Shown here one piece after another: positions 2,620 through 62,240 of a stretch of 64,000 nt of DNA (positions are counted from its first letter, which is position 1; each line of letters begins with the position of its first letter). The stretch is from an uncultured Collinsella sp. (GTDB taxonomy: Bacteria > Actinomycetota > Coriobacteriia > Coriobacteriales > Coriobacteriaceae). A model generated the notes under the pieces. It had not been told where the DNA came from. It did not search any database and saw nothing but the letters and a program-made list of their open reading frames with translations. Where the stretch lies: the NCBI GenBank assembly GCA_900541235.1, contig UQIW01000008.1, positions 5,910 to 69,909 of the forward strand, written 5' to 3'. A program made the translations under genes and the position numbers.

Positions 2620-2772
2620 GCTCGCTCTCTTGGTACTTCCTCTTGTGTATTTAAGTCGTATAGATAGTCAAGGTAGCATAGCCCAGCCCGTGGGCGATTC
2701 CAACCAACACGAAATCCATCGAACAATCGTTCGATTAGATAATGAATGCTTGGAATGCGGGAGGGGCCTGTC

Positions 2773-4155
2773 CTATCCAAACATCTGCGGTAGGTCGATG
2801 AAGACGGTTCGATCGCTTTCGCCAGCTTCGAAGCCCGAACGGGAGAAGAATCCATAGCGATGGCACTTGAGCCCCGTTGCCTCGACTTGGATGATTTCCT
2901 CGTCGACCATTTTTTGCGTGACGGGGGATTTGCGGAACTTTGCTTCGTAGAATGCGTAACCCTCGGGGTCTTGCGTTACCACATCGAACTCGCCGCTCGT
3001 CTTGTTTGCGGGATCGTCGTACCAGTACTTGCCTATGGCGTCGAAAGCCGGTTCGATCTTGCCGGTCCTGTTCTGCCGCACGAGGTATTGACGGCAGACC
3101 TCCTCGAACATATGAGGAACGTAGTTTTCCTCGAAGTCTTGGGAGACGTGACGATCATAGAAGACTTCCGGGTCGAGCAGCTGACGCGCCGAGGCATTGC
3201 GGAAAACATAGCGATAGTAAAAGAGCGAAAGCGGATCCACTACAAAGTAGCCGGACTTACGCTTGTTCGTAGGGTCGTTGATGGGTGCACGCTTTTGGAC
3301 GATTTCGAGTGACATGAGCTTGTCGAGCACGTCTGCCATGGCCGGACCGCTCGAGACGTGCGACTGTGCCAGCACGTCCCCCCAACGGGAGTAACCTTGT
3401 GCGAGAGCCCCGAAAACTTCGTTGGCGTTGGTCATCTTCGAGATCTCGGCGTTGAGATAGGACGGCACCTCGCTTTCTAAGCGGGCGCCAGGTTCCGTGA
3501 CGAGCTCGATGATGTTGTTGCGTACGCTTTGGGATTGATCGATGAGGCGATTGTAAAAGGGGATGCCGCCAAAAACGCTATAGAGCCGCACCTTGTCCTC
3601 GGGCGAGAACGCGGGATAGAACTTCGCAGCGTCAAAGTAATCCATGGGCTTAAGCTCAAGCGCGAGATCAATTCGCCCGTAGAGGGGGCTTTCATGCTCG
3701 ATGAGGGATTTCATAATCTCAACGTAGGAGCCGCACAGGACAATGTTTAAACGTGAGTCTTCCCTGTGAGCGTCGATTGAGGTCTGAAGAATGCTGTCTA
3801 AGCCCTTAACCGCATCTCTCAAGTAGGGGTATTCGTCGAGAACGAGGGTAATGTTCTTGTCTTTGGCTTGGGCAAACAGAAATTCGATGAGCTCGCGGAT
3901 GCCTGTGAAGGCGAGCGGAGGAAAGCTCAGCGTTTCAGCAACAAGGGCGGACAGACTCTCGAGGTTGTCTGCCTCGGAGGTTTGGCGGCACTCGTAATAG
4001 ACCGTTGCGACGTCCGACAAATCGGTTAGCGCCTGCTTGATGAGCTCACTTTTTCCGACGCGACGCCTGCCGTAAATGAGAACATTGCGCTGCTCAGGTG
4101 CTTTGAGCGTTTTCTTAATACGGGCGAGTTCACGCTCCCTGCCAATGAATTCCAC
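2773..4155 (-). CDS. AAA+ ATPase of the COG1672/Arch_ATPase type with a C-terminal DUF234-like domain
   Basis: It starts MEFIGRERELARIKKTL and has a Walker A (YGRRRVGKSEL) and Walker B (LVLDEYPYL). It has a GTG start at 4155. Confidence 0.7.
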   Translation of the reverse strand: MEFIGRERELARIKKTLKAPEQRNVLIYGRRRVGKSELIKQALTDLSDVATVYYECRQTSEADNLESLSALVAETLSFPPLAFTGIRELIEFLFAQAKDKNITLVLDEYPYLRDAVKGLDSILQTSIDAHREDSRLNIVLCGSYVEIMKSLIEHESPLYGRIDLALELKPMDYFDAAKFYPAFSPEDKVRLYSVFGGIPFYNRLIDQSQSVRNNIIELVTEPGARLESEVPSYLNAEISKMTNANEVFGALAQGYSRWGDVLAQSHVSSGPAMADVLDKLMSLEIVQKRAPINDPTNKRKSGYFVVDPLSLFYYRYVFRNASARQLLDPEVFYDRHVSQDFEENYVPHMFEEVCRQYLVRQNRTGKIEPAFDAIGKYWYDDPANKTSGEFDVVTQDPEGYAFYEAKFRKSPVTQKMVDEEIIQVEATGLKCHRYGFFSRSGFEAGESDRTVFIDLPQMFG

Positions 4156-4157
4156 TT

Positions 4158-4260
4158 ACTCGGTTCCTTCCGACTCGGTTTTGTCCGAGTTAATTGTATC
4201 GCATGAATCAGTTTATGCTCGAGTTTACTCGGACAAAACCGAGTCGGTTCTGTCCGAGTA
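4158..4260. promoter_or_regulatory. Array of palindromic operator-like sites (ACTCGG-N6-CCGAGT) between the divergent ATPase and XRE genes
   Basis: ACTCGGttttgtCCGAGT lies at 4173-4190 and ACTCGGacaaaaCCGAGT at 4227-4244. Extra ACTCGG/CCGAGT hexamers lie at 4158, 4241 and 4254. Overall this forms a 33-nt imperfect inverted repeat, 4158-4190 versus 4227-4260. Confidence 0.4.
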
Positions 4261-4334
4261 AGTTTGAATAGTGAACCGAAGTTGTAATGTCCGCATGGCG
4301 ATGACGAACATGGTTTCCATAATGACAGATATAG

Positions 4335-4363
4335 TTGACATCTTCTGATAGATGCAATATATT
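4335..4363 (+). promoter_or_regulatory. Near-consensus sigma70 promoter for the XRE regulator gene
   Basis: TTGACA lies at 4335-4340 and a TATATT -10 at 4358-4363, with a 17-nt spacer. It is about 48 nt upstream of the ATG at 4412. Confidence 0.4.
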
Positions 4364-4411
4364 TCTGCCATGTTGCAACGGATATCTGTCCATTACCACG
4401 AAAGGAACTCC

Positions 4412-4642
4412 ATGCCGGGCAAAAAGAACCTACGCATGAAGGCGGCGCGCGCGGCGGTTGGCCTTTCGCAAGCTGACTTGGCCGAGGCCGTGGGCGTTAC
4501 GCGCCAGACCATCGGCCTGATCGAGGCGGGCGGCTACAACCCCACGCTCAATTTGTGCGTGGCAATCTGTAAAGCGCTACGCGTTACGTTGAACGACTTG
4601 TTTTGGGAAGACGAGAGCGACGTCGACCCTGACGCTCTTTAG
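4412..4642 (+). CDS. XRE-family helix-turn-helix transcriptional regulator, 76 aa
   Basis: LSQADLAEAVGVTRQTIGLIEAGGYNPTLNLCVAICKAL is a classic Cro/C1 HTH. An AAAGGAA ribosome-binding site precedes the ATG at 4412. Confidence 0.8.
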   Translation: MPGKKNLRMKAARAAVGLSQADLAEAVGVTRQTIGLIEAGGYNPTLNLCVAICKALRVTLNDLFWEDESDVDPDAL

Positions 4643-4651
4643 GAGTTCGCT

Positions 4652-5236
4652 ATGAAATTTGAAGATTTAAAACTCGTGCAAAAGTGGCGTGAATATGCCG
4701 GCCCAAAGGATGAGCGCCTGGAGGCTGAGAACGCGAAGATCTACAAGATTGGTTTCGTGCTGCTTTCGTTTGGCATGTTGATGATCTTTTTCTACCAGTT
4801 TATAGCTCGACAGGTTGCGTGGGTTCACAGCGACGTCAGTGAAATGCCGCATGGCTTTGCAACGCCGTTCGAGGCGGCCATGTATTTGTGGCTCGTTCTC
4901 GTGATGTTGATTTGCGCAGGACTGCAAACGCGGAAGGGCTATGTCGATACCAATCGTTTTGGGCAAACCGAGCATCTTCCTGTTGGATATTTCCTGCTTC
5001 TCAGCGGTCTTAGCGGCACCGCGTTCGCGCTTGTTATTGCCGCAATGCGCTGTATCGCTGAGGCGCAGATCGTACCGCTCGAAAGCGTCTTTTGGTTGGC
5101 GAACCTGGCCACGGGCGTGTTCTGCGGTGCGACGATTTTCGCGGCCACGTTTGCTGCCCTGTGCGCAACGTTTTTCACGGCGAAAAGACGCCGTGCCAAG
5201 CTCGAGGCAGAACTCGACTCCTCTGACGACATCTAA
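4652..5236 (+). CDS. Integral membrane protein, DUF2178-like partner of a small XRE regulator
   Basis: It has four predicted TM segments. It lies 10 nt after the XRE gene stop, which is the typical XRE-plus-membrane-protein pair. Confidence 0.65.
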   Translation: MKFEDLKLVQKWREYAGPKDERLEAENAKIYKIGFVLLSFGMLMIFFYQFIARQVAWVHSDVSEMPHGFATPFEAAMYLWLVLVMLICAGLQTRKGYVDTNRFGQTEHLPVGYFLLLSGLSGTAFALVIAAMRCIAEAQIVPLESVFWLANLATGVFCGATIFAATFAALCATFFTAKRRRAKLEAELDSSDDI

Positions 5237-5241
5237 TGCGT

Positions 5242-5280
5242 AATGGGCTGGCTCTGGGTATTCAGAACCAGCCCATTTGA
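5242..5280. terminator. Bidirectional intrinsic terminator hairpin between convergent genes
   Basis: A 10-bp stem, AATGGGCTGG/CCAGCCCATT, has a 16-nt loop and is followed by TTTGATGTT. It sits between the stop at 5236 (plus) and the stop at 5326 (minus). Confidence 0.45.
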
Positions 5281-5325
5281 TGTTCGATGAGCCGAGTCGG
5301 CGCCTCTCACAAAAGTAACTAGGAG

Positions 5326-8300
5326 CTAGCGAGGCCTATCCGAATTGGCCTCATTGGCGGTGTCGATCTCGAGCGCCGTGCGGCGGGCGCTGTAGGCGAC
5401 AAGGCCAGCACCAGCCGCGGCGAGTGCTGCAGCGGCTGCCGTGAGGGGAGCGTTGGCATCGCCCGTGCCCGCAAGCGCGCCCGCTTTTCCGGAGCGCTTG
5501 TTATTGCCGTGGTCCTTGCCACTGCCGGAGCTGCTTCCGCCGGAGCCGCCGCCCTCGTCAGTACCGCCGCCACTTGAGCCACCATCGCCGTCCGCCGTCA
5601 TCGGGGCGTCGTGAAGCCCTGTGGCGTCCGCGCTGTCGCATACGCCGACCTGAACTTCTGAGCGTTCGCATGCCGCGTCGGGCACGTGGAGCTCGTGCAG
5701 TACAGCACCCAGCGCCGAGTTCGCGCCCGGTCGAATTTCTTCGAGCGTTACGGGATCGAGCGCCACCAGATTACGCGCCTTCGCATACAGCGTTACGCGT
5801 TTGCCCACTTCGTCGCTCCAACTCTCGGGGATGGCGAAGCTCATGCGGAACTGTGCCGTGCAACCCGGTGCCAGCACGGCGTTGCCACTGTCGGCTACCA
5901 GCGGGTGCGTTGCAAAAGGTGTGCCCAGCGTTTCGAGCGCGTACTTCACGTGTGCCATGTCGTTGACCGAAGCGTCCTCGGCAAGCTCTGGATCGTAGAT
6001 CGATGCCATGCGTGTGTTCGCTCCGAACCCGATGGATGCGCTGGAGAACGGCTGGCTGGAGCCCTCTCGGTACAGATCGATTGTGCCGGCGGTCAGCAAG
6101 GTGTTGCCGTCGTTTCGCACCGTGACCATGAAGGATTCGCCTGCTGCTCCGGGCACCACCGCGCCCGAGGTAGCGACTGCGCCCGTCGGGGTGGCACACG
6201 CCACCAAGGGCACTTCGATGCCGTGTAGTTCTGCCTCGCTCTTCTCCGCGCTCACAATGTGCGTGGCGAGCGCGGAGAGCATGCTCCCCGACGTCAAAAA
6301 TGTCGTTATCTGATCGACGGGATGGTCCAGCTCGCACATCACGAACGGCTCCGTAAACAGATCGCCTGCCAAGGTGCTGGCGAAGATGCGGAAGTGCTTG
6401 CCCATCACTGCTACCGGGTTGCCTTCTTCGTCGTAGGTTTGCCCCACCTTGCCATCGGTGTTCTCTACATAGAGCACGCACCTGCCGTTGTTGCTTACGC
6501 TAAACGATGCCGGGCCACAGCCTGCGGCACCCACGGGCTGCGTTGCAAATGCCGATGCGCCTCGCGTCCAAGTAATATGCTGCAGTTGCTCGTTGACGGT
6601 AGCCAAAAAGCCCGTGTGCTGCGGCCACGGCACCGCGTGGGGTACTGTGGCATCTGGCGACATAACGCCCCAGCTCGCAATGGACTGGCCGATCACGGCG
6701 TACGATGCACAGCCACAACCGCCTGCGGTCTCGTATGCAATGGGCACCACCATTTTGCCGTTGATATTCTCGGGCGCGCCGAGCTCGATGCTCGACGGTG
6801 CCTGCGGAAAGCGGAGGACCTGACGGAACGTGAGACTGTCGCCCGAAACGTCCGACCACAGGGTAAAGCACTCCAGCGCAACCTCGGCCTCGCTGCCGAG
6901 CGTCTTTTCTGCGGTGGTTCCGCGGCGGTGGAGGTAGGCGCCCGACAGGCGCCCGTCGACAAGTGTCTTGCCCACCGTGATGCGTGGGCACTGCAGGCAA
7001 TGGTAGCCATCCTCCTGAAGGCGGCCGCGCGAGATGCTGCGCCACGACGTGTGCGATATCACGCGAACTCCGTCGTTGCTTATGCGCAGGCGCACAACGG
7101 ACAGTATGCCGGATGTGCTCGCCGTATCGAAAAGGGTGTTGTCGCCGGCGGGGCGCTCGCCCGAGACCAGCAGCACGTAGGCGTCCTGGTTTCCTCTTCC
7201 GTCCGTATATTCCACTACGTCGAAGTCGTAATCGTATATGCTGTCGCGCTCCACGTCGCCCTCGCCAAACCCAAGGGGAAAGTCCACAGGCGTGGGAGCG
7301 GACCACGTCCCGTTTGCCTTTGTGTGTACCACCAGGCGCGAGCGACCATTGTCGCCGTAGCGCACCGAGGCGATACGGAACAGGCATTCTACGCCGGCAA
7401 TCATTGCCAGCTTCATGTGGGCTTCGCTGAGCACGCCAGCAAACAGCACGTTGTCGCTCGAGGGCTTGATGCCGCCACGCTCGTCCTCCGACACGCCGGC
7501 AGAATCGGCGTTCGGGTCGGCAACGGTGTTCGTTGCCTGACCGATGTAGGTGTACTCATACATCGGCGCGGCGTTTTCGTCGTTCTCTATCAGTGCATGG
7601 ACGAAATGCTCGATCTGTCCCGTGTCGTCGCTTTCTGCATCCGCCTCGAGCTCAATGCGCGTGACCGCCCGATCCCAATCGCGCACGACAGGCGCGGCGT
7701 TTACGGCAGTGGCCTTAACCTCGGCGCGTGCGAGCAGCTCGGCGTTGGTGACGATGGTGGCCGATGCGATAAATTGCGGAACGCCGCCCGCCTCGATGTT
7801 GCCGGGCGTGCCGAAGCGGGCGTCCAGCGTGTAAGGCGTATCTCCACCCAATGCGAGCTCAGAGCGCTGGAGCGCATACTGGTCGCCATTGTTCACCGAC
7901 ATATTCCACGAATCGATGAGTGTGGGCCACGACCCCGACCAAGCCTTGGTGGTCCACTTGAACATTACGAACTGGAGTATCACATCGACATCGACGTCTG
8001 CACCTACGCGCAGTCGCGGAAGCTGGTGTCCATCCGCCTTCTCGTACCCAATGAACAGCGTGAGGGATGCGGCGCCGCGCACGGCAGACGAAGCGACGCC
8101 TGCAACGCCGGCGCCAAAGGTGACGGCGAGCCCGATCTGGATGGTGAACGAGCCCGACGTGTTTGAATAGTCGAGCGAAATGTTTTTAAAAAACGCCGCG
8201 CCGCTGCCGTGCGTGTGGGCACCCACGGCGAGCGCCAGTTTTGCCAGCACCCAGGGGTTGACGTTTAGGAAAAATGGCACCGGTCCTAGGGTAAACTGCT

Positions 8301-9576
8301 CGGTCCAATTGAGGTCGGTTCTTACCTGGAAGAGGGCCTTAATATTGCCGTATGCGGGGTCGTTGTTGTTACCCCAGGTTTTGCCCACCCAATCGTAGGC
8401 GAGCGAGCCGTACAGCTGTGTGGCGATATCCATCGTGAACAGCGGCGTGCAATGGTGGCGAAGGAGCTTGGTGTTTCTTGGATCGGTGCCCGAACCGGCA
8501 CTCATCCTCTTGTACTGATTCCACTTCCCCTCCATCTCGTCGAGGTAGCGGTTTGCCTGCTTGGCGCCCGACTCGCGCGGCGATTTCTTCCAGTATTCCG
8601 GATCAGGGTTGCCCGAATCGTTCATATAGCTAGCTGGTTTGTACCCTCCGCCAAACAGCACGTATCCAGCAAACGAGAAATCGAACAGAATGGGAAATGT
8701 GGGCATCCAGCACGTGAACTTATTGCCGCCGATACCGGGAAACGCCGCGGGGAAATCAAACGGAGTGATCTCTTGGTCCATGGTGGTGGGAATGATGGTG
8801 GTCGAGCCCGATTCCGCCTTTGCGGCCGGCGCGGTGACAACGGCCATAGGGGATGAGAGCGTGTAGGTTTTGCCCTGGTAGTCGAGCATAAAGCGCAGCT
8901 TGCACCCTTCCTCCAGAAGGCCCGAAGCTGCATCGAGGAACGTGTCTTCGAGCGTGAACGTCGCCAGATTATCCGCGCCCGATGCGCTGGCCTTGATCAG
9001 GCCGATCTGCGTGACGGTTTCGGTTGAGCTGCCCGCAGAGGGCATCACTTTATTGATATGCAACGTTGCCTGCCCGCCCTGCGGCAGATGAGCCTGCACG
9101 GTAAAAGCGTGCGTGTCGGGCTGGTCGTTTGCTGCTTCGTCCGCTGGCATTGCCATAAACGTGGCGTCGGCGTACTGGATGTCCCATTCGTCGAACGTGA
9201 GCTGTCGAAAGTACGGCTCGCCATCGGAGAGCGGACGTGTGGGTGCGGTAATAGCGGTGCCGCCCTGGATACGCGCAAGGGGAATCTCGACATCGCGGTA
9301 GCCTGCCATGCTAATGGAGATGCCGCCGTTAAAGTCGTACGCGTCGAGAAGCGTTGCCTCGTCCACGTAGCCTTCTGAAAGAGGGGCGACCTCAAAGATG
9401 GCCGTGCCTTCGTCATCGGTCGTGGCGGTGAGCTGCTTGCCTGCGGCATAGCGCGATATGAGCGTGACCTGGGCACCCGTGATGGGCGTATTCTTGTTGG
9501 CGACGTCGACCACGACCACACCGAACATGGTGCGCGAGAGAACGAGCACCCTGAAGGGGGTCTTTTTCGTCGGCAT
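5326..9576 (-). CDS. Very large (1416 codons) cell-surface protein of unknown function, with a C-terminal LAXTG-like sorting motif and TM anchor. Its N-terminal signal peptide appears to be encoded in a different frame upstream, suggesting a frameshift or phase-variable gene
   Basis: This is a continuous ORF. Its N-terminus has a beta-rich Ig-like or carboxypeptidase-regulatory-like fold character. Near the C-terminus there is a Gly/Ser-rich linker and then LAGTG-DANAP-LTAAAAALAAAGAGLVAY-SARR. Confidence 0.75.
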   Translation of the reverse strand: MPTKKTPFRVLVLSRTMFGVVVVDVANKNTPITGAQVTLISRYAAGKQLTATTDDEGTAIFEVAPLSEGYVDEATLLDAYDFNGGISISMAGYRDVEIPLARIQGGTAITAPTRPLSDGEPYFRQLTFDEWDIQYADATFMAMPADEAANDQPDTHAFTVQAHLPQGGQATLHINKVMPSAGSSTETVTQIGLIKASASGADNLATFTLEDTFLDAASGLLEEGCKLRFMLDYQGKTYTLSSPMAVVTAPAAKAESGSTTIIPTTMDQEITPFDFPAAFPGIGGNKFTCWMPTFPILFDFSFAGYVLFGGGYKPASYMNDSGNPDPEYWKKSPRESGAKQANRYLDEMEGKWNQYKRMSAGSGTDPRNTKLLRHHCTPLFTMDIATQLYGSLAYDWVGKTWGNNNDPAYGNIKALFQVRTDLNWTEQFTLGPVPFFLNVNPWVLAKLALAVGAHTHGSGAAFFKNISLDYSNTSGSFTIQIGLAVTFGAGVAGVASSAVRGAASLTLFIGYEKADGHQLPRLRVGADVDVDVILQFVMFKWTTKAWSGSWPTLIDSWNMSVNNGDQYALQRSELALGGDTPYTLDARFGTPGNIEAGGVPQFIASATIVTNAELLARAEVKATAVNAAPVVRDWDRAVTRIELEADAESDDTGQIEHFVHALIENDENAAPMYEYTYIGQATNTVADPNADSAGVSEDERGGIKPSSDNVLFAGVLSEAHMKLAMIAGVECLFRIASVRYGDNGRSRLVVHTKANGTWSAPTPVDFPLGFGEGDVERDSIYDYDFDVVEYTDGRGNQDAYVLLVSGERPAGDNTLFDTASTSGILSVVRLRISNDGVRVISHTSWRSISRGRLQEDGYHCLQCPRITVGKTLVDGRLSGAYLHRRGTTAEKTLGSEAEVALECFTLWSDVSGDSLTFRQVLRFPQAPSSIELGAPENINGKMVVPIAYETAGGCGCASYAVIGQSIASWGVMSPDATVPHAVPWPQHTGFLATVNEQLQHITWTRGASAFATQPVGAAGCGPASFSVSNNGRCVLYVENTDGKVGQTYDEEGNPVAVMGKHFRIFASTLAGDLFTEPFVMCELDHPVDQITTFLTSGSMLSALATHIVSAEKSEAELHGIEVPLVACATPTGAVATSGAVVPGAAGESFMVTVRNDGNTLLTAGTIDLYREGSSQPFSSASIGFGANTRMASIYDPELAEDASVNDMAHVKYALETLGTPFATHPLVADSGNAVLAPGCTAQFRMSFAIPESWSDEVGKRVTLYAKARNLVALDPVTLEEIRPGANSALGAVLHELHVPDAACERSEVQVGVCDSADATGLHDAPMTADGDGGSSGGGTDEGGGSGGSSSGSGKDHGNNKRSGKAGALAGTGDANAPLTAAAAALAAAGAGLVAYSARRTALEIDTANEANSDRPR

Positions 9577-18100: not shown

Positions 18101-18382
18101 ATCGGCGCATCGAAGCGCAACGTGGCCAACGTATTCAATGCCGAGACCTTTATCGAGGGCCTCATTGCCGGCGTCTTTGCTATTGTCGTCGTGGTACTCG
18201 TGAGCTTCCCGGTCAATGCCTGGGCGCTTGCTGCCAAACAGGTACCCAATCTGATGAGCCTGCCCGTGCAGGATGCGCTGGTACTCATTGCAATTTCGGT
18301 GCTGTTGACGGTCGTTGCCGGCCTGCTGCCTGCCCGCAGCGCATCCAAGAAGGACCCCGTCGAAGCCCTGCGCTCCGAATAA
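15131..18382 (+). CDS. Fused ABC transporter ATP-binding and FtsX/MacB-type permease protein, 1083 aa
   Basis: It has a Walker A (GPSGSGKTT), the LSGGQMQRVAIARAL signature and a Walker B (LADEPTGALD). The C-terminus has the FtsX-like motif ILRAIGASKRNV and TM helices. A GGAGAGG ribosome-binding site is present. Confidence 0.85.
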   Translation: MLELKGICKRYVTQSFTQVALDSVSLSFRDNEFVAILGPSGSGKTTMLNVIGGLDHFDSGDLLIDGISTKDFHDRDWDAYRNNRIGFVFQSYNLIPHQTILENVELALTLTGVGHAERRQRAREALEKVGLGEHVNKRPSQLSGGQMQRVAIARALINDPEIVLADEPTGALDSTTSVQVMDLLKDVARDRLVIMVTHNPELAYQYATRIVNLADGKITDDSDPFDVADVTRREAKPTRKTSMSFVTALGLSARNLMTKKGRTAMTAFAGSIGIIGIAAILALSNGVNGYIKKVEEDTLSSYPLTISKQDYDLSSMMGGQGAADDEASNGEDLSDGTGGKAKGTDKIPVVTAVKDMFASVKSNDMTSFKAWLDAGGDGIDKEVNAVQYGYGVSPVVYRAGKGDEKPVRLVPNAMTEAMSGGASSAATVSMESMGTSVFNEMIDDQSLLDSQYDVVAGHWPTSANEAVMVLSSRGTVGDYTLYSIGALDIDELNDLVNSAMTADGGVKAPETGTDFTYDDALSTTFKVLSPADAYRKNEETGMWADMSGDADFMAAKVADGIDVRIVGVVRPNETANASALSPGIAYTHALTRRLMERAADSQIVQEQLAHPETDVFTGKSFDELQGEAKQGVDLGSMFSVDEAALKSALSFDASALSGVAGGMDLSGLDLSGLDIDLSGVGRDIDFSDIMAKAPAPDFSGIFDGLELTPEQMQQVGTLANQLFEGFLQSDQFKALSPEDLKDASKLAAAFSTYLENDAAAQQILAQLKALGGDVLAERLQQAMTDYVQKQLAPYLQQAMDQLMKAVSEQIASTVSSQLKVGAAGLMDQMATQMSSSFANLASAMHVDASVFANAIHFNMDAEDLSSLMMSYAKASKLTYDNNLTTLGYADEADPISVKIFPRDFEAKERVLDHIDAYNKQVKAAGHDDRAISYTDYMGIIMGSVTDIVNTISLVLIAFVSISLVVSSIMIGIITYISVLERKKEIGILRAIGASKRNVANVFNAETFIEGLIAGVFAIVVVVLVSFPVNAWALAAKQVPNLMSLPVQDALVLIAISVLLTVVAGLLPARSASKKDPVEALRSE

Positions 18383-18410
18383 TGTGACAAAGGGGCAGTC
18401 CCTTTGCCAC
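18383..18410. repeat. Family A stop-codon-adjacent palindrome (TGTGACAAAGGGGCAGTCCCTTTGCCAC)
   Basis: It lies immediately after the TAA at 18380-18382. It shares the AAAGGGrCAG core with copies at 50911, 54638 and 55893. Confidence 0.5.
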
Positions 18411-18435
18411 GTTCGTTGATATGAGAGAAGAGTAG

Positions 18436-19389: not shown

Positions 19390-19520
19390 TTAGCCATTGG
19401 GGACGTTCTTTAACGACTAGTCATTTTAGAACGTCCCCAATGGCTATGTTGCAAAAGCTGCACGTCAGCATCCAAAGATGTCGAAAAATGTCGACTTTGG
19501 ATGCTGGTGTACATGTTTGG
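19390..19520. repeat. Family C composite MITE-like repeat, copy 1
   Basis: It has inverted GGGGACGTTCT/AGAACGTCCCC and ACTAGTCATT/AATGACTAG modules, plus a 19-bp perfect inverted repeat CAGCATCCAAAG...CTTTGGATGCTG around the ATGTCGA direct repeats. It is about 90 percent identical to the copy at 20495-20620. Confidence 0.55.
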
Positions 19521-19533
19521 GTGTGGTGGGTAA

Positions 19534-19800
19534 CTAGGCAATCATTGCATCAAGCGTGATGAGCTCCCTGAGTCGCTCCGTGCGTGTTTGCCCATGGCGC
19601 TTTGCTTTTGCGTCAAAGGCTTCAAGGACCGATTCGCCCACACGTGCCGACAAGACAGCGCTCGGCTCATCAGAGATCGGCGGCCTTCCCAGCTTAACGG
19701 TGCGGCCTTTCGGCCATTCATCTTTTTCGTAAGCTTCCGCGGCTTTCTCTAACTCTCCAGGGGCAAATCCCATCATTTTTTCAAGCTGCTCAGCATCCAT
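19534..19800 (-). CDS. Ribbon-helix-helix (CopG/BrnA-like) antitoxin-like protein, 88 aa, without an obvious toxin partner
   Basis: The sequence reads MDAEQLEKMMGFAPGELEKAAEAYEKDEWPKGRTVKLGRPPISDEP...LEAFDAKAKRHGQTRTERLRELI. An AGGAGG ribosome-binding site lies 5 nt before the ATG at 19800. Confidence 0.65.
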   Translation of the reverse strand: MDAEQLEKMMGFAPGELEKAAEAYEKDEWPKGRTVKLGRPPISDEPSAVLSARVGESVLEAFDAKAKRHGQTRTERLRELITLDAMIA

Positions 19801-20252
19801 GGCGCCTCCTATCGATCGACATAATGTCGAGCGCTGGTTCTCGGATTCCCTTTTTTGTATACAGTTTTGTAGACAAAAATACAAGCAGTTTATCGGGACA
19901 ATTAGCTTGTTTTGATCCGCCTGCTCGATAGGAAATGAGCATTGACGGTTTCGATACTCCTTTGCTTTTCAGCTTGGAATTTGGATGCTCGTTGAACTTC
20001 CGGAGGGGAGCGTTTTATTAAGCTATCGAGATTCTGGGCAGGAGCTCTCACCGGTCTTCGATAGTGGGACCAGCTTAATTCGCGACACAGTGTGTCGCGA
20101 ATTGGAGTAGTCGTTGGGTGTCCTTCAATGGCTAGTCATACAAGAACGTCCAAGTGCCGGATTTTGTCATTTAGTATCGTTCTCAGCGACTATTCTGGAG
20201 GGTCGTGGTCAATAAAGGGCAAATATGAGTACTGTTGCCATTATGGTTGCAT

Positions 20253-20414
20253 TTATTTTGCTATAAATAGTAGCTCCTGATGAGATTTGTTCCCATTAGG
20301 AGCTACGTTTATTGAACATATGAGGAGAAATAACGTCGTCTGCGGACGAGTGGAACGTTGAATAGTTCCTGAAGTGATCAAAATCGCTGCTACTAAACAG
20401 GTAGCAGTACTCAT
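20253..20414 (-). CDS. Small hydrophobic hypothetical protein (53 aa from an internal ATG; the ORF extends to a TTG at 20498)
   Basis: The sequence reads MSTATCLVAAILITSGTIQ...LFLLICSINVAP. It lies in AT-rich non-coding-looking DNA inside a repeat-bounded islet, and a weak AAGGG lies upstream. Confidence 0.2.
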   Translation of the reverse strand: MSTATCLVAAILITSGTIQRSTRPQTTLFLLICSINVAPNGNKSHQELLFIAK

Positions 20415-20494
20415 ATTTGCCCTTTTTTGACCACAGCCCTCTCGGAAACCCTTTCCAGAGGCGTCAAACAGCCATAATCCAAAGGCCATCTCAA

Positions 20495-20620
20495 ACAACT
20501 AGTCATTTAAGAACGTCCCCAATGACTACCTCTGCAAAAAACTGTACACCAGCATCCAAAGATGTCGAAAAATGTCGACTTTGGATGCTGGTGTACATGT
20601 TCAGGCCGTATGGGGTGGGG
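20495..20620. repeat. Family C composite MITE-like repeat, copy 2 (direct orientation relative to copy 1)
   Basis: AACTAGTCATTTAAGAACGTCCCCAATGACTA is followed by the perfect 55-nt palindrome TGTACACCAGCATCCAAAGATGTCGAAAAATGTCGACTTTGGATGCTGGTGTACA. Confidence 0.55.
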
Positions 20621-30603: not shown

Positions 30604-30664
30604 AAGGATACCAGCTCAGCCTGCCCAGTCGGCAGCTGTACCGCTAAACGCTCCCGCCCGGCAG

Positions 30665-30775
30665 TCATCGGGGACGTTCTTAAACGACTAGTCATTGGGG
30701 ACGTTCTTGTTTGACTGGTCATTTAAGAACGTCCCCAATGACTAGTTCCGTTTGCTGGGGAGGCGTGGGACAATA
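30665..30775. repeat. Family C MITE-like repeat, copy 3 (module A only), in the 5' region of the K+ channel gene
   Basis: GGGGACGTTCTTAAACGACTAGTCATT occurs twice, followed by TTAAGAACGTCCCCAATGACTAG and a GGGGAGGCGTGGGACAAT tail. Confidence 0.5.
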
Positions 30776-30814
30776 CCGAGCGAACGTGATTGGTTGTCCG
30801 TGGAAGGGGTCGCG

Positions 30815-34960: not shown

Positions 34961-35099
34961 GGGTGAAATGCCTCCCCAAAGAACAACCGCGCCAGATTTA
35001 CGGCGCTCGTCCGATGATACCGTCCCGCCATGAAGCTTTGATATCGCTGTGGTGAGACAGGGGCCATAGTTCGAGAGGGCATTTGGTTAAGGCTCGAAT

Positions 35100-35280
35100 C
35101 GAAGGTGAATGGTTTTCCGCGAAGTGAACGAGTAAATCTGGACCCCTGGGACATGCACACTTTTTCGAACAAAACTGCAGGATTCTTAGACAAAAACCGC
35201 AGGAATTGAGTCCTTAAAAATGTCGATGCTACAGGGTACTGTTTTTACTCGTTCACTTCTCGGAAAAGTATTCACCTTCG
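35100..35280. repeat. 181-bp MITE-like element with 37-bp terminal inverted repeats
   Basis: The left arm is CGAAGGTGAATGGTTTTCCGCGAAGTGAACGAGTAAA (35100-35136). The right arm at 35244-35280 matches its complement at 33 of 37 positions. The internal direct repeat AAAACTGCAGGATT/AAAACCGCAGGAATT is present. Confidence 0.4.
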
Positions 35281-35409
35281 ATATGCTGACGGTGTCTTTT
35301 TGGTTGCCAAGAACTAGACGGCCTGCTGTGAGGGGCGGTGGTGACGCTATGCCGCCTTGTTTCATTGAAAAAATAAGCGGGGTACCACCTAAGCTTTTTT
35401 AGCTGTCGA

Positions 35410-45059: not shown

Positions 45060-45175
45060 TCGGCACTTGGGGACGTTCCTTTTCTGTCGGCAGCTGGGGA
45101 CACTCCTTATCTCTTCTAACTAGTCATTCAAGAACGTCCCCAATGACTAGGTGGGGAAGGCGTGAGACAATGGTG
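45060..45175. repeat. Family C MITE-like repeat, copy 4, in the divergent region between the MATE and rlmA genes
   Basis: TTGGGGACGTTCC...AACTAGTCATTCAAGAACGTCCCCAATGACTAG is followed by a GGGGAAGGCGTGAGACAAT tail that matches the copy 3 tail. Confidence 0.5.
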
Positions 45176-45206
45176 GGCGTTGTGTTGTTCGCGCTAAGGA
45201 GTTGCC

Positions 45207-46022
45207 ATGTTGTTGTGTCCCGTTTGCCATGAACCGTTGGTGGACGATGAGCGTGGGGCCGCATGTGCGGGCGGACACCGGTTTGACCGTGCGCGCGAGG
45301 GTTATCTATATCTACTGCGCTCGTCCAAGAGCGGCGACTCCATGGGCGATCCCAAGTCGCAGGCACGCAGCCGTCGTGACTTTCTAAACCGTGGCTACTA
45401 TGCGCCGTTGCGCGATGCAATGGTCGAGCTGGTGCGTGAGCGGGCGGCTGGGTGCGCTGCGTCTACGAACGGCCCCATGACGTTGCTCGATATTTGCTGC
45501 GGCGAGGGCTACTACACCAGCGCCATGGGCGCGGTGCCGGGTGTGGATGCTTACGGTTTCGACCTGGGCAAAGAGATGGTACGCCTTGCCGCCAAGCGCG
45601 GCGATGCGACCTATTTCGTGGCCAACATGAAGGACGTCCCCGTGGCCGATGGCGCCTTCGATATGGTGACCGAGCTCTTTGCCCCCTTTAACGAGCGCGA
45701 GTTTGCCCGCGTGCTGGCACCCGAGGGCTCGCTCTACACCGTGGTGCCGGGTGCCCGTCATCTCTTTGGGCTCAAGGAGGTGCTCTACGACACGCCGTAC
45801 CTTAACGATGAGAAGCTGCCGAAGACCACCGAGCTCGAGTTGGTCGGAACGCAGCGGGTGTCTGCGAATATTACGCTCCAGACCCAGGCCGATATCGAGG
45901 CGGTGTTCCAGATGACGCCGTACTACTATCGCACGCGCCCTGCCGACAAAGAGCGCCTGGCAAACCTGGAAACGCTCCAGACCGATATCGACTTCATCAT
46001 CGCCGAGTACCGCCACAGCTAA
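45207..46022 (+). CDS. rlmA: 23S rRNA (guanine745-N1)-methyltransferase RlmA-like
   Basis: It has an N-terminal zinc ribbon (CPVCHEPL...C..GH) and a class I SAM methyltransferase fold (LDICCGEGYYT). An AAGGAG ribosome-binding site is present. Confidence 0.7.
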   Translation: MLLCPVCHEPLVDDERGAACAGGHRFDRAREGYLYLLRSSKSGDSMGDPKSQARSRRDFLNRGYYAPLRDAMVELVRERAAGCAASTNGPMTLLDICCGEGYYTSAMGAVPGVDAYGFDLGKEMVRLAAKRGDATYFVANMKDVPVADGAFDMVTELFAPFNEREFARVLAPEGSLYTVVPGARHLFGLKEVLYDTPYLNDEKLPKTTELELVGTQRVSANITLQTQADIEAVFQMTPYYYRTRPADKERLANLETLQTDIDFIIAEYRHS

Positions 46023-46024
46023 CA

Positions 46025-46059
46025 ACCTGCCAAAAAGGGACAGGTTTATTTTGGTAGGT
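46025..46059. repeat. Family B palindrome (ACCTGCCAAAAAGGGACAGGTTTATTTTGGTAGGT) directly after the rlmA stop
   Basis: It has 11-bp complementary arms around an AGGGACAGGTTTAT core. It matches the copies at 62099-62133 and 62168-62200. Confidence 0.5.
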
Positions 46060-46076
46060 TTTATCTGGGCAAACGT

Positions 46077-46114
46077 AAAGGGCCGACCGCGGAGATGCGC
46101 GATCGGCCCTTTTT
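46077..46114. terminator. Bidirectional intrinsic terminator
   Basis: An AAA run precedes the hairpin GGGCCGACCGCG-gagat-GCGCGATCGGCCC, which is followed by TTTTT. Confidence 0.5.
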
Positions 46115-48913: not shown

Positions 48914-50917
48914 ATGTCGAAGCAAGCGGTCGTTGGAATTGTGGCGCATGTCGATGCCGGCAAGACCACGCTGGCCGAGGCCATGCTGTTCAACGCGGGT
49001 CGCATTCGCAAGCGCGGCCGCGTGGACGATGGTGATTCGCATCTGGACACTGACGCGATCGAGCGCGAGCGTGGCATCACGATTTTCTCGTCGCAGGCCG
49101 TACTCGACCATGGCGATACCCACGTCATGCTCGTGGATGCACCGGGGCATGTCGATTTTTCGGCCGAGGCGGAGCGCACATTGCGCGCGCTGGACTACGC
49201 GATTTTAGTTGTGGGCGCCAACGACGGCGTGCAGGGGCACACCGAAACCCTGTGGCGCCTGCTTGCACGCTATGACATCCCGACGTTCATCTATATCAAC
49301 AAAATCGATTTGGAGAATCCCGGCCGCGATGTTTTGCTGGCACAACTTGGGCAACGTCTTTCCGAGGGCTGCCTGGATGCCAGCGAACTGCTGGCGGGCG
49401 GCTCCGTTCAGGAGGACGCTGCTGCGTTGGACGAGGCGGCGCTCGAGGAGTTTCTTGAGGCGGGTGAGCTTTCTGTCGCAATGCTGTCACGCATGGTTGC
49501 CGAGCGCAAATTGTTTCCCTGCTTTGCGGGATCGGCGCTCAAGGACCAGGGTGTGGCAGAGCTGCTCGACGGCATATGTGCTCTGATGCGCGAGCGAACA
49601 TGGCCCCAGGAGTTCGCCGCGCGTGTCTACCGCGTGAGTCGTGGAGAGCGTGGCGAGCGTCTTGCCTGGGTCAAGGTGACGGGCGGCATGCTGCATGCCA
49701 AGCAGATGATTAGCGGACGTTCCGGTGCCGAGGCATGGGAGCAGAAGGTCGATCAGGTGCGCATCTATAACGGCGAGAAGTATGAGCTTGCCCAAGAAGT
49801 TGCCGCTGGCGGTATTTGTGCCGTGACGGGTCTTGCGCACGTTCGCCCAGGGGACGCCCTGGGTGCGGAGCCCGCGGGCGATGCGCCTGTCATTGCGCCG
49901 GTTCTCACCTATACGGTGCTTCCGGGCGAACACGATGTCCACGCGGTGTTCAAAGCACTGACAGAGTTAGCGGACGAAGATCCTATGCTCGGCGTAAGCT
50001 GGAATACTCATCTGGAGCAGATTCACCTGCAGCTGATGGGCGCCGTGCAACTCGAGGTCGTGCAGCGGGTGTTGGCAGATCGTTTTGGCCTTTCGATTGC
50101 GTTTGAGCCCGGCGGCATTCTCTATAAGGAGACTATTTCGCAGCCGGTCGAGGGCGTGGGCCACTTTGAGCCGCTGCGCCACTATGCCGAGGTACATCTG
50201 CGTTTGGAGCCGTTACCGGCGGGCTCGGGCGTGCAATTTGGCACCGTGACCTCGACTGACGAGCTCGACTTGAACTGGCAGCGTCTGGCGCTCACCAACG
50301 CCATGGAGCGCGATCACCTGGGCGTGCTGACTGGCTCGCCCGTCACCGATGTGCGCATTACGCTCACGGGCGGCCGTGCGCATGCCAAACACACCGAGGG
50401 CGGCGATTTTCGCCAGGCCACGTACCGCGCGATTCGCCAGGGGTTCATGCAGGCGCGTGAGGCGGGCGCGGCGGTGCTGTTGGAGCCGTGGTACCACTTT
50501 GAGCTCGAGGTGCCGGGGGAGTGTGTGGGCCGGGCGCTTTCGGATGCTACGCGTATGGGTGCCGAGTACGAGCCGCCGACGATGGCGGGAGACCGCGCCA
50601 AGCTCATGGGCCGCGTGCCGGCATCCGAAGTGCAGGATTACGCGCTGGAGGTGGCTGCCTATACGAGTGGCCGCGGGCATCTGTACCTGGAGTTTGCCGG
50701 CCACGCGCCCTGTCATGATGCTGAGCGCGTAATTGAGGCGGCCGCCTATAAGCCCGAGGCCGATCTGCCCAATACGCCCGACTCGGTCTTCTGCTCTCAT
50801 GGCGCCGGCTACACCGTCAAGTGGCACGACGTCCCCGCCACGGCGCACGTAAAGGTCGATCCCGCCACCTTTCGCCCCTGGCGAGCAGCAGACGCCGAGT
50901 TTTTCGGCCACATGTGA
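48914..50917 (+). CDS. TetM/TetO/TetW-family ribosomal-protection-type translational GTPase (EF-G paralog), 667 aa
   Basis: The G-motifs are AHVDAGKTTL, DAPGHVDF and INKID, which resemble TetM-type more than EF-G-type (AHIDAGKTT/NKMD). It has EF-G domains II-V. GAGGAG precedes the ATG at 48914, and the stop lies inside palindrome A2. Confidence 0.75.
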   Translation: MSKQAVVGIVAHVDAGKTTLAEAMLFNAGRIRKRGRVDDGDSHLDTDAIERERGITIFSSQAVLDHGDTHVMLVDAPGHVDFSAEAERTLRALDYAILVVGANDGVQGHTETLWRLLARYDIPTFIYINKIDLENPGRDVLLAQLGQRLSEGCLDASELLAGGSVQEDAAALDEAALEEFLEAGELSVAMLSRMVAERKLFPCFAGSALKDQGVAELLDGICALMRERTWPQEFAARVYRVSRGERGERLAWVKVTGGMLHAKQMISGRSGAEAWEQKVDQVRIYNGEKYELAQEVAAGGICAVTGLAHVRPGDALGAEPAGDAPVIAPVLTYTVLPGEHDVHAVFKALTELADEDPMLGVSWNTHLEQIHLQLMGAVQLEVVQRVLADRFGLSIAFEPGGILYKETISQPVEGVGHFEPLRHYAEVHLRLEPLPAGSGVQFGTVTSTDELDLNWQRLALTNAMERDHLGVLTGSPVTDVRITLTGGRAHAKHTEGGDFRQATYRAIRQGFMQAREAGAAVLLEPWYHFELEVPGECVGRALSDATRMGAEYEPPTMAGDRAKLMGRVPASEVQDYALEVAAYTSGRGHLYLEFAGHAPCHDAERVIEAAAYKPEADLPNTPDSVFCSHGAGYTVKWHDVPATAHVKVDPATFRPWRAADAEFFGHM

Positions 50918-50943
50918 CAAAGGGACAGTTCCTTTGTCACATG
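50911..50943. repeat. Family A palindrome (CATGTGACAAAGGGACAGTTCCTTTGTCACATG) containing the TGA stop of the upstream gene
   Basis: It is a 13-bp stem whose ATGTGA encodes the terminal Met plus the stop codon. Confidence 0.55.
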
Positions 50944-51010
50944 CTATTGGTATAACTCGGTACAAGTTGGTATAACTATTGCCAAGGTTTGCCAATCCGA
51001 GGAGGCCGAC

Positions 51011-54637: not shown

Positions 54638-54670
54638 AATGAGGCAAAGGGACAGTCCCTTTGCCTCATT
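54638..54670. repeat. Family A-like palindrome (AATGAGGCAAAGGGACAGTCCCTTTGCCTCATT) 2 nt after the uvrA-paralog stop
   Basis: It is a perfect hairpin with the shared AAAGGGACAG core. Confidence 0.55.
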
Positions 54671-54675
54671 GATGC

Positions 54676-55892: not shown

Positions 55893-55927
55893 GAATGTGA
55901 CAAAGGGGCAGTTCCTTTGTCACATTC
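55893..55927. repeat. Family A palindrome (GAATGTGACAAAGGGGCAGTTCCTTTGTCACATTC) containing the stop of trmL on the minus strand
   Basis: It is a 14-bp stem, and the minus-strand reading ATGTGA gives Met plus stop for trmL. Confidence 0.55.
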
Positions 55928-61940: not shown

Positions 61941-61968
61941 AGGGGCGCTGTGCATAGACAGCGCCCCT
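61941..61968 (-). terminator. Riboswitch-associated intrinsic terminator (expression platform)
   Basis: The minus-strand RNA forms ACAGGGGCGCUGUCUAUGCACAGCGCCCCUUUUCU, between the aptamer and the thiM ribosome-binding site. Confidence 0.55.
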
Positions 61969-61974
61969 GTAAAG

Positions 61975-62072
61975 GCGGCATGCTCCCTACGCCAGCATTA
62001 ACTGACAGGTTCAAAGGATTGGGCCCCATGCCCTCTCAGCCTTGTGGTTTGCACCGCCGGCACTCCCGCATC
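61975..62072 (-). ncRNA. TPP (THI-box) riboswitch controlling thiM-ykoF-thiE
   Basis: The minus-strand RNA contains GGGAGUGCC...GCUGAGA...CCUUUGAACCUGUCAGUUAAUGCUGGCGUAGGGA. This matches the THI element consensus (CUGAGA, ACCUGAUCUGGAUAAUGCCAGCGUAGGGA) in the 5' leader of thiamine genes. Confidence 0.75.
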
Positions 62073-62098
62073 GAATCTGTTGTTCCCTATACTAGCGC

Positions 62099-62200
62099 AC
62101 CTGCCAAAAAGGGACAGGTTTATTTTGGCAGGTAACAACTGGGACTTTGCGTTTTCCCAAATGAAATCTGCCGAAATAAACCTGTCCCTTTTTGGCGGGT
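62099..62200. repeat. Pair of Family B palindromes in inverted orientation (62099-62133 and 62168-62200) separated by 34 nt
   Basis: ACCTGCCAAAAAGGGACAGGTTTATTTTGGCAGGT is paired with the reverse complement of ACCCGCCAAAAAGGGACAGGTTTATTTCGGCAG. This lies in the divergent region between the riboswitch and the HAD gene. Confidence 0.5.
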
Positions 62201-62240
62201 CGGTACAATAGATGGGATTAAGAATGACCGAGGGGACCTT

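Follow-up and report, generated by a model that had tools for sequence, protein, structure and literature searches.

Repetitive extragenic palindromic (REP) sequences and bacterial interspersed mosaic elements (BIMEs) are known from Proteobacteria such as E. coli and Pseudomonas. In classical REPs a conserved tetranucleotide, GTAG or CGTC, stands directly 5' of the stem. REPs are documented as site-specific targets of IS110-family insertion sequences (ISs) (PMC1525189, PMC11208160, PMC12288879). IS621, ISPpu9 and ISPpu10 are members of this family that target REPs via a bridge RNA. Here we describe a repeat of a similar kind in Collinsella, and the variable locus at which it was noticed, in a stretch of 64,000 nt from an uncultured Collinsella sp. 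(contig UQIW01000008.1, positions 5,910 to 69,909; hereafter the window). The genus Collinsella is abundant in the gut and highly diverse. [quoted passage not shown] The islet is located between the genes dus and grx. We find two modules, which we call M1 and M2. We consider it probable that M1 is a REP/BIME-like repeat and M2 a locus-specific hairpin, and that the two, although unrelated, stand side by side around a decaying accessory cassette. Loci of relatives that were compared with the window are designated by L-numbers.

M1 hairpin units form four clusters in the window

M1 is a hairpin unit of ~31 nt made up of TAGTCATT, the loop GGGGACGTTCTTA, and AATGACTA. We searched the window for its 19-nt core, AGAACGTCCCCAATGACTA, allowing up to three mismatches. 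There were seven sites, at 19391(-), 19428(+), 20510(+), 30662(-), 30689(-), 30726(+) and 45131(+), compared to none in 100 shuffles of the sequence. The seven sites fall into four clusters (19391-19446, 20498-20528, 30662-30744 and 45060-45149). A degenerate M1-like unit at 20120-20151, 84% complementary to 30699-30730, completes the four to five copies that the earlier note had counted.

The clusters differ in how their units are arranged. Copy 1 (19391-19446), located directly 3' of the dus stop codon, is an inverted pair of M1 units that forms a palindrome with 28-nt arms. Folded as single-stranded DNA it reaches -22 kcal/mol (z-score -10.4), far more stable than shuffled sequence; the same holds for the other hairpins for which a z-score is given here. 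Orthologues of this inverted pair are present in L107, L063 and L022. Copy 2 (20498-20528) is a single M1 unit, so that the nested hairpin that had been proposed for the copies is found as a palindrome in copy 1 and not in copy 2. Copy 3 (30662-30744; z -10.0) is an array of two tandem units 27 nt apart and one inverted unit, three units in all; the orthologous site in L022 and L026 has two. Copy 4 (45060-45149) combines two variant units (CGGCACTT-GGGGACGTTCC, with GGGGACGTTCC at 45069, and GGGGACACTCC) with one canonical unit. At the orthologous sites in L038, L086, L099 and others there is a plain M1 inverted pair with no variant units.

The DNA immediately 3' of copies 3 and 4 (30745-30790 and 45150-45190) has a motif in common, GGGGA(A)GGCGTG(G/A)GACAAT. 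The motif sits ~40-60 nt 5' of plus-strand gene start codons and may be a promoter -10 region.

M1 is dispersed in intergenic DNA of Collinsella

The earlier note had left it to a database search whether the repeat extends beyond the window. It does: in a scan of one genome per species, at least 120 stretches of sequence contained the M1 core, and almost all of these were from Collinsella, including C. aerofaciens. One short contig with the core is labelled Methanobrevibacter and is probably mis-binned. Among 7.3 Gb of plasmid records that were scanned for the core, M1 was found in one record only, a C. aerofaciens replicon of 900 kb, where 14 places match it near-perfectly. A single copy of the core is also present on a 6.7-kb viral-classed IMG/VR contig (L258, 980-998). 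M1 has a density of about one cluster per 16 kb in the window; in the fetched loci, every 50 kb adds about one further cluster. As an estimate only, a genome would contain tens to perhaps about a hundred clusters.

We built a consensus from 289 distinct copies, gathered with a 10-nt core alone: A(C/T)GAC-TAGTC(A/G)TT-TAA-GAACGTCCCC-AATGACTA. The unit has a stem of 8-10 bp and a nearly invariant loop of 13 nt. Positions in the stem change by compensatory Watson-Crick or by wobble replacements, and G.T wobbles are in excess on the GAACGTCCCC strand. Some subfamilies keep the loop on other stems, such as TACTCATT/AATGAGTA at the orthologous site in L026 and a further CCGGCA/TGCCGG type. M1 units can stand alone, pair in inverted orientation or form tandem arrays with a period of 27 nt (three tandem units in L037), and both the number and the type of units differ between lineages at orthologous sites.

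Most copies are intergenic. Using a rough gene call from open reading frames and GC content at third codon positions, by which ~80% of the DNA was called coding, 128 of 135 distinct M1 clusters were outside genes. Spacers of all three kinds had clusters: 56 clusters were between co-directional genes, 19 between convergent and 15 between divergent ones. The orientation of single units showed no bias relative to flanking transcription (20 sense and 17 antisense), and relative to GC skew the split was 28:19 (p = 0.24). With these two ratios, a strand bias of M1 that would have pointed to single-strand transposition was dropped as a candidate.

There was no M1 or M2 match in Rfam and tRNA scans of the region, and a literature search turned up no account of a repeat of this kind in Collinsella. 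Together, M1 appears to be a known kind of element that had not been described in this genus. We think that a Collinsella-specific, REP/BIME-like extragenic palindromic repeat is a better label for it than MITE: M1 has no internal segment between terminal repeats, its arms abut, and its units also occur singly or in tandem.

M2 is a hairpin of the dus-grx locus

M2 is a long hairpin around ATGTCGAAAAATGTCGA. In the window it is present only at 19453-19517 and 20537-20601, both read on the minus strand. The left copy (M2L, 19453-19517) is located 20 nt 3' of the stop codon of a gene for a small ribbon-helix-helix (RHH) protein and is followed by TTTT. The right copy (M2R, 20537-20601) is located 44 nt 3' of the grx stop codon and is followed by TTTTTT. 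The two are 94% identical. The second module that had been noted in two copies is therefore present twice, as stated, with the difference that its 19-bp inverted repeat is perfect in the right copy only; the left arm of M2L has three transitions. M2R folds at -24.9 kcal/mol (z -11.2), and the minus-strand stem is ~22 bp.

We scanned metagenomes for the M2 loop pattern and recovered at least 120 stretches. All 120 of the 120 matches listed were in the dus-grx locus. In ~0.8 Mb of other Collinsella DNA there was one diverged M2-like hairpin, in L013, with compensatory changes in its stem. The view of one composite family did not survive these results, since M1 is dispersed and M2 belongs to a single locus.

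M2 follows minus-strand stop codons by 20-44 nt and precedes a run of T residues, and for these reasons we read it as terminator-like. Judging from this placement, M2 most likely ends the minus-strand transcripts of both grx and the cassette next to it. The differences among M2 variants are mostly transitions at two CG positions, some of which leave mismatches. We also considered whether M2L could be a crossover chimera of a left half from attB and a right half from attP. This was rejected because M2R does not have the reciprocal pattern and the hairpins of L217 are both self-complementary.

M1 and M2 together form direct repeats around variable DNA

The left direct repeat (19412-19517) consists of the inner M1 unit of copy 1, a linker and M2L, and the right direct repeat (20494-20601) of the single M1 unit at 20498-20528, a linker and M2R. 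They are identical at 97 of 108 positions (89.8%), with a start-to-start spacing of 1082-1084 bp. The earlier note, which had given copies 1 and 2 as direct repeats of about 90% identity flanking a segment of reduced GC content, was accurate on both points: the GC content of the islet (19534-20490) is 47.6% compared to 58.9% for the window.

We compared the dus-grx spacer in 53 loci for which both flanks were available, a sample biased by the way in which the loci were fetched. The window type, with spacers of 1243-1325 bp, was the most frequent (33 loci). In 12 loci the spacer is 154-181 bp and contains the M1 pair and one M2 (e.g., L063), and in L107 it is 64 bp and contains the M1 pair only. 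Two loci, with spacers of 234 and 268 bp, have extra M1 units after M2 (L229) and an IS110-family fragment beside M1 (L187). Partial cassettes are found in spacers of 727 bp and 1731 bp (one locus each), and the full cassette in one spacer of 2430 bp. In L127 an IS110-family element and an IS3 insert bring the spacer to 3889 bp, and the spacer of L246 is 4673 bp. Relatives thus have both single-copy, empty spacers and full-cassette spacers, and the DNA that the copies flank is present in some and absent from others. There was no visible target-site duplication at copy 1 or at its L107 orthologue, and single M1 units offered no clean pair of filled and empty sites for this comparison.

In public assemblies the islet is often a stand-alone contig of ~1.05-1.1 kb, or of ~2.3 kb for the full cassette (proteins P0006-P0030 and P0109-P0146). 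These contigs are consistent with a break of the assembly graph at each flanking repeat; a circular form is the alternative.

The islet contains the remnant of a three-gene cassette

The intact cassette (L217, L168 and L259-L265) is 2.3 kb and has three genes in the same orientation as grx. These encode p428 (428 aa; intact copies at L217 4372-5658, L259 3501-4787 and L264 464-1750), the small protein p88, and an 88-aa protein that has an RHH domain at its C terminus. Aligned with these copies, the islet of the window is a decayed form of this cassette, which is found in Collinsella only. The window retains the gene for the 88-aa RHH protein (19534-19800, minus strand; Pfam RHH_1, E = 1.2e-4, above the curated cut-off). 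Next to it, 19801-19899 (minus strand, compared to L217) contains the ribosome-binding site of the RHH gene and the junction of a deletion that removed p88, where 19816-19830 form the palindrome TCGACATAATGTCGA. It also keeps the segment that separated p428 from p88, TTTTTGTCTACAAAACTGTATACAAAAA, at 19850-19879. It is followed by a remnant of the 3' end of p428 (19900-20031, minus strand), which is ~75% identical to L217 4326-4485. In the window type, then, p88 and most of p428 have been lost and the RHH gene has been kept.

The RHH gene was intact in 44 of 44 distinct alleles, and all 10 of the 10 places shown for the exact protein of the window were in the same dus-grx locus. Its dN/dS ratio is ~0.07 at a dS of ~0.5, also among 37 alleles of toxin-less islets. 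We therefore take it to be a live gene under purifying selection, and regard it as an orphan antitoxin-like gene that has outlived its cassette.

The functions of the other two genes can be suggested only tentatively. Homologues of p428 were found in Collinsella only, down to 57% identity at the fixed locus, and p428 had no match in Pfam, NCBIfam or PHROG. Weak matches of residues 96-195 to the PADLOC model PDC-S02 (E = 1e-4), together with this divergence, raise the possibility that it may be a defence-type gene. The one match of p88, a weak one (E = 0.14), was to a chain in the PDB that bears the name 'Toxin'. An unrelated locus also has a p88-RHH pair, with a p88 that is 48% identical. We call the cassette toxin-antitoxin-like because of its gene order and RHH domain, and not because of a match to a toxin family; p88 and the RHH protein would act as toxin and antitoxin, respectively. 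Domain searches of the full-cassette proteins found no integrase, recombinase or transposase. Every retrieved copy of the cassette adjoins grx. A plasmid or phage origin was rejected, as there was no match to the cassette in the plasmid and phage collections.

The heptad ATGTCGA occurs twice in the loop of each M2 (19478-19494 and 20562-20578), and in the whole window it occurs 22 times compared to 8.6 expected. It also makes up the palindrome at 19816-19830, located just 5' of the RHH gene at the deletion junction. These shared heptads made the M2 loop a candidate operator for the RHH protein. The palindrome is missing from the intact cassette of L217, however, which makes an operator role unlikely, and heptads of this kind are lacking where RHH homologues are found at other loci. 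We rejected the candidate.

An IS110-family element inserts at one position in M1

There was no transposase near any of the M1 copies in the window. An IS110-family element, also absent from the window, is present in relatives, where we found at least four insertions at an identical position of the M1 core, TAGTCRTTGGG^GGACGTTCTT, at different loci (L006, L079, L127 and L110). The insertion in L079 (4227-5640) is on the reverse strand. In L127 the insert (2650-5282; 2.6 kb) is in the dus-grx locus. Its transposase is of the IS110 family (DEDD_Tnp_IS110 and Transposase_20 domains, assigned on the L127 gene calls) and is itself interrupted by an IS3-type element. The junctions of the insert show a single M1 unit split at TAGTCATTGGG^GGACGTTCTT. 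In L187 an 87-bp fragment of this element adjoins M1.

The ends of the element (TGTTCCTATAG... and ...CGACTGTAAT) are unrelated to M1. The earlier note had suggested a check for an IS with matching terminal repeats; the only IS found in association with M1 uses it as the target. In the non-coding end of this element is GGGACGTTC, which repeats 9 nt of the target half-site and is possibly the guide of a bridge RNA. There was no Rfam family matching the non-coding end.

Other repeats in and around the islet

The islet also contains a 255-bp MITE-like element (20193-20447) with terminal inverted repeats of ~55 nt (core GGCAAATATGAGTACTGTT) and a variable interior. It folds with a z-score of -13.8. 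Each arm has an ATG after a weak ribosome-binding site, giving peptides that begin MSTV... or MSTAT.... The element is not in the intact cassette and was gained by the window-type islet. It recurs at unrelated Collinsella loci (L090 3139-3370, L057 6190-6434, L112 1827-2167 and L108 7851-7888), and is therefore a true MITE-like family distinct from the repeat flagged in the earlier note. Of the repeats at the islet it alone has the anatomy of a MITE, and it belongs to a different family from M1 and M2. The sequence CTGATGAG within it was examined as a hammerhead ribozyme and gave no hit.

Another family of hairpin repeats, GTGACAAAGGG-N4-CCCTTTGTCAC, is present in the window at 18381-18414, 50911-50944, 54638-54671 and 55894-55927, and in L121 at 7385-7420 and 9025-9060. 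In L121 and most relatives, two of these hairpins bracket a gene for a 377-aa protein between dus and an ABC transporter. At the same site the window has one hairpin and no gene, a pattern of bracketed cargo like that at the islet. L121 also has a MITE-like element of ~215 bp (8800-9015), with inverted ends of ~70 nt (TCGAGGTCTAATACTTTTCCGAGAAGTGAACG...), 3' of the gene for the 377-aa protein.

A further repeat family, ACCTGCCAAAAAGGGACAGGTTTATTTTGGCAGGT, has direct and inverted copies at 46020-46080 and 62099-62205 of the window. One of these is beside a thiamine pyrophosphate (TPP) riboswitch at 61967-62077 on the minus strand (Rfam RF00059; 55.9 bits compared to a gathering score of 54.3). 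A repeat finder also reported long local inverted repeats at 4154-4263 and 35098-35282 (40 nt, 83% complementary, and 67 nt, 78% complementary, respectively).

How the locus may have formed, and alternatives

We propose that M1 is a selfish or neutral repeat whose arrays change by local duplication and recombination; it serves as a preferred landing site of the IS110-family element. At the dus-grx locus one copy of the M2+M1 module follows grx and another the RHH gene, that is, two adjacent minus-strand transcription units, and it is for this reason that direct repeats of 108-135 bp surround the cassette. In the lineage of the window, the cassette has lost p88 and most of p428 and gained the MITE-like element, giving a low-GC islet with a selected RHH gene. 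RecA-type homologous recombination between the direct repeats would delete the islet and leave a single M1+M2 spacer, as in a dozen lineages. We infer this deletion, the terminator role of M2, the toxin-antitoxin function of the cassette and the manner in which M1 spreads. What is observed directly is how the repeats are built and distributed, the different states in which the locus is found, the site at which the IS enters M1, and the selection on the RHH gene.

Several results weigh against parts of this explanation. A tblastn search with E. coli RayT for a REP-associated tyrosine transposase (RAYT), in a partial and underpowered sample of 1.03 Mb of Collinsella DNA around M1 copies, found nothing below E = 1. 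The stem of M1 is without a GTAG or CGTC head; it is preceded by A(C/T)GAC, and CGTC is found only inside the loop. M2 was not called in a scan for terminator patterns, because its loop with an inner stem is over the limit of the tool, and the most frequent variant of M2 is mismatched on that strand from which it would be transcribed, the minus strand. There was no match of p88 to a hidden Markov model of a toxin. The divergent cassette of L264 has neither M1 nor M2 at either end, and the repeats are therefore not integral to the cassette. The single-copy spacer could be a deletion scar or a pre-insertion site; the data fit both.

A bolder version of this explanation, which seems unlikely, is that M1 represents an undescribed, RAYT-less type of REP-like repeat whose loop is recognised by a protein or a guide RNA, and that M2+M1 is a copyable 'terminator plus landing pad' that seeds sites of cassette gain and loss. 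The gene for the 377-aa protein between two hairpins of another family, absent from the window, would be a parallel to such seeding.

It is decidedly unlikely that the direct repeats are the attL and attR sites of a small integrative mobilisable element that enters an M1+M2 attB by site-specific recombination. Low-GC cargo between direct repeats of 108-135 bp, a single-copy site in relatives and the frequent recovery of the islet as a separate contig (~1.05-1.1 kb or ~2.3 kb) are all features that such an element would have. However, short contigs are the expected product of an assembly graph broken at repeats, and the full cassette has no integrase, recombinase or transposase. All of the retrieved copies are beside grx, with none in the plasmid or phage collections, and p428 has diverged to 57% identity in place, which indicates a long residence of the cassette. 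In addition, the cassette of L264 is present without the repeats.

We give still less weight to the possibility that M1, alone or combined with M2, is a genuine MITE, a non-autonomous element mobilised in trans when an IS transposase recognises its terminal inverted repeats. An M1 inverted pair does make a perfect inverted repeat of 19-28 bp, M1 copies are dispersed and intergenic, as those of a MITE would be, and the M2+M1 module follows two neighbouring transcription units. But single units, tandems of 27-nt period and pairs all lack an internal segment, neither copy 1 nor the L107 site has a visible target-site duplication, and the composite was never seen outside the dus-grx locus. The sole IS associated with M1 splits the unit in its middle, and its ends are unrelated to M1. 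For these reasons the MITE-like label given in the earlier note was not upheld. The least probable of the explanations is that M1 is a functional cis-element, either a protein operator or an RNA hairpin for mRNA stability or termination, kept by selection: its loop is nearly invariant, its stems covary with an excess of G.T wobbles on the GAACGTCCCC strand, and copies 3 and 4 are just 5' of gene starts with the motif that they have in common, but M1 is oriented with and against flanking transcription about equally often (20 sense, 17 antisense), is found in convergent, co-directional and divergent spacers alike, varies freely in unit number and type at orthologous sites and matches no Rfam family.

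Relation to known systems

If our preferred explanation is correct, a REP-like family in Collinsella explains breaks in assemblies, such as the recurrent contigs of ~1.1 kb and ~2.3 kb, and marks hot spots of gene gain and loss that differ from strain to strain. M1 would be a natural multi-copy target in this genus for an IS110-family recombinase of the bridge-RNA type, and the orphan RHH gene a small example of an antitoxin-like gene that outlives its cassette. None of these findings poses a challenge to current understanding.

The cassette can be compared to type II toxin-antitoxin systems in which the toxin gene comes first and the antitoxin has an RHH domain, an order like that of BrnT/BrnA. 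In the cassette p88 is upstream and the RHH gene is next, and the pair is found at a second locus too; p88 itself presumably resembles BrnT. Unlike the operons of these systems, p88 has no match to a toxin family, and in the window p88 is deleted and the RHH gene stands alone.

M1 differs from the REPs and BIMEs of Proteobacteria in several respects. Its host is actinobacterial (Coriobacteriia), its conservation is in a large loop of 13 nt rather than in a GTAG or CGTC head next to a long stem, the 1.03 Mb sampled around its copies yielded no RAYT, and its density, about one cluster per 16-50 kb, is apparently lower. It is like them in that its units are short imperfect palindromes that are extragenic, dispersed and taxon-specific, form clusters in direct and inverted orientation, and are specific targets of an IS110-family element. 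In comparison to IS621, ISPpu9 and ISPpu10, the bridge RNA of the Collinsella IS is a candidate only, with no match in Rfam. The Collinsella IS has the same domains as these elements (DEDD_Tnp_IS110 and Transposase_20) and, like them, it enters one exact position of a repeat core at several loci without having inverted ends.

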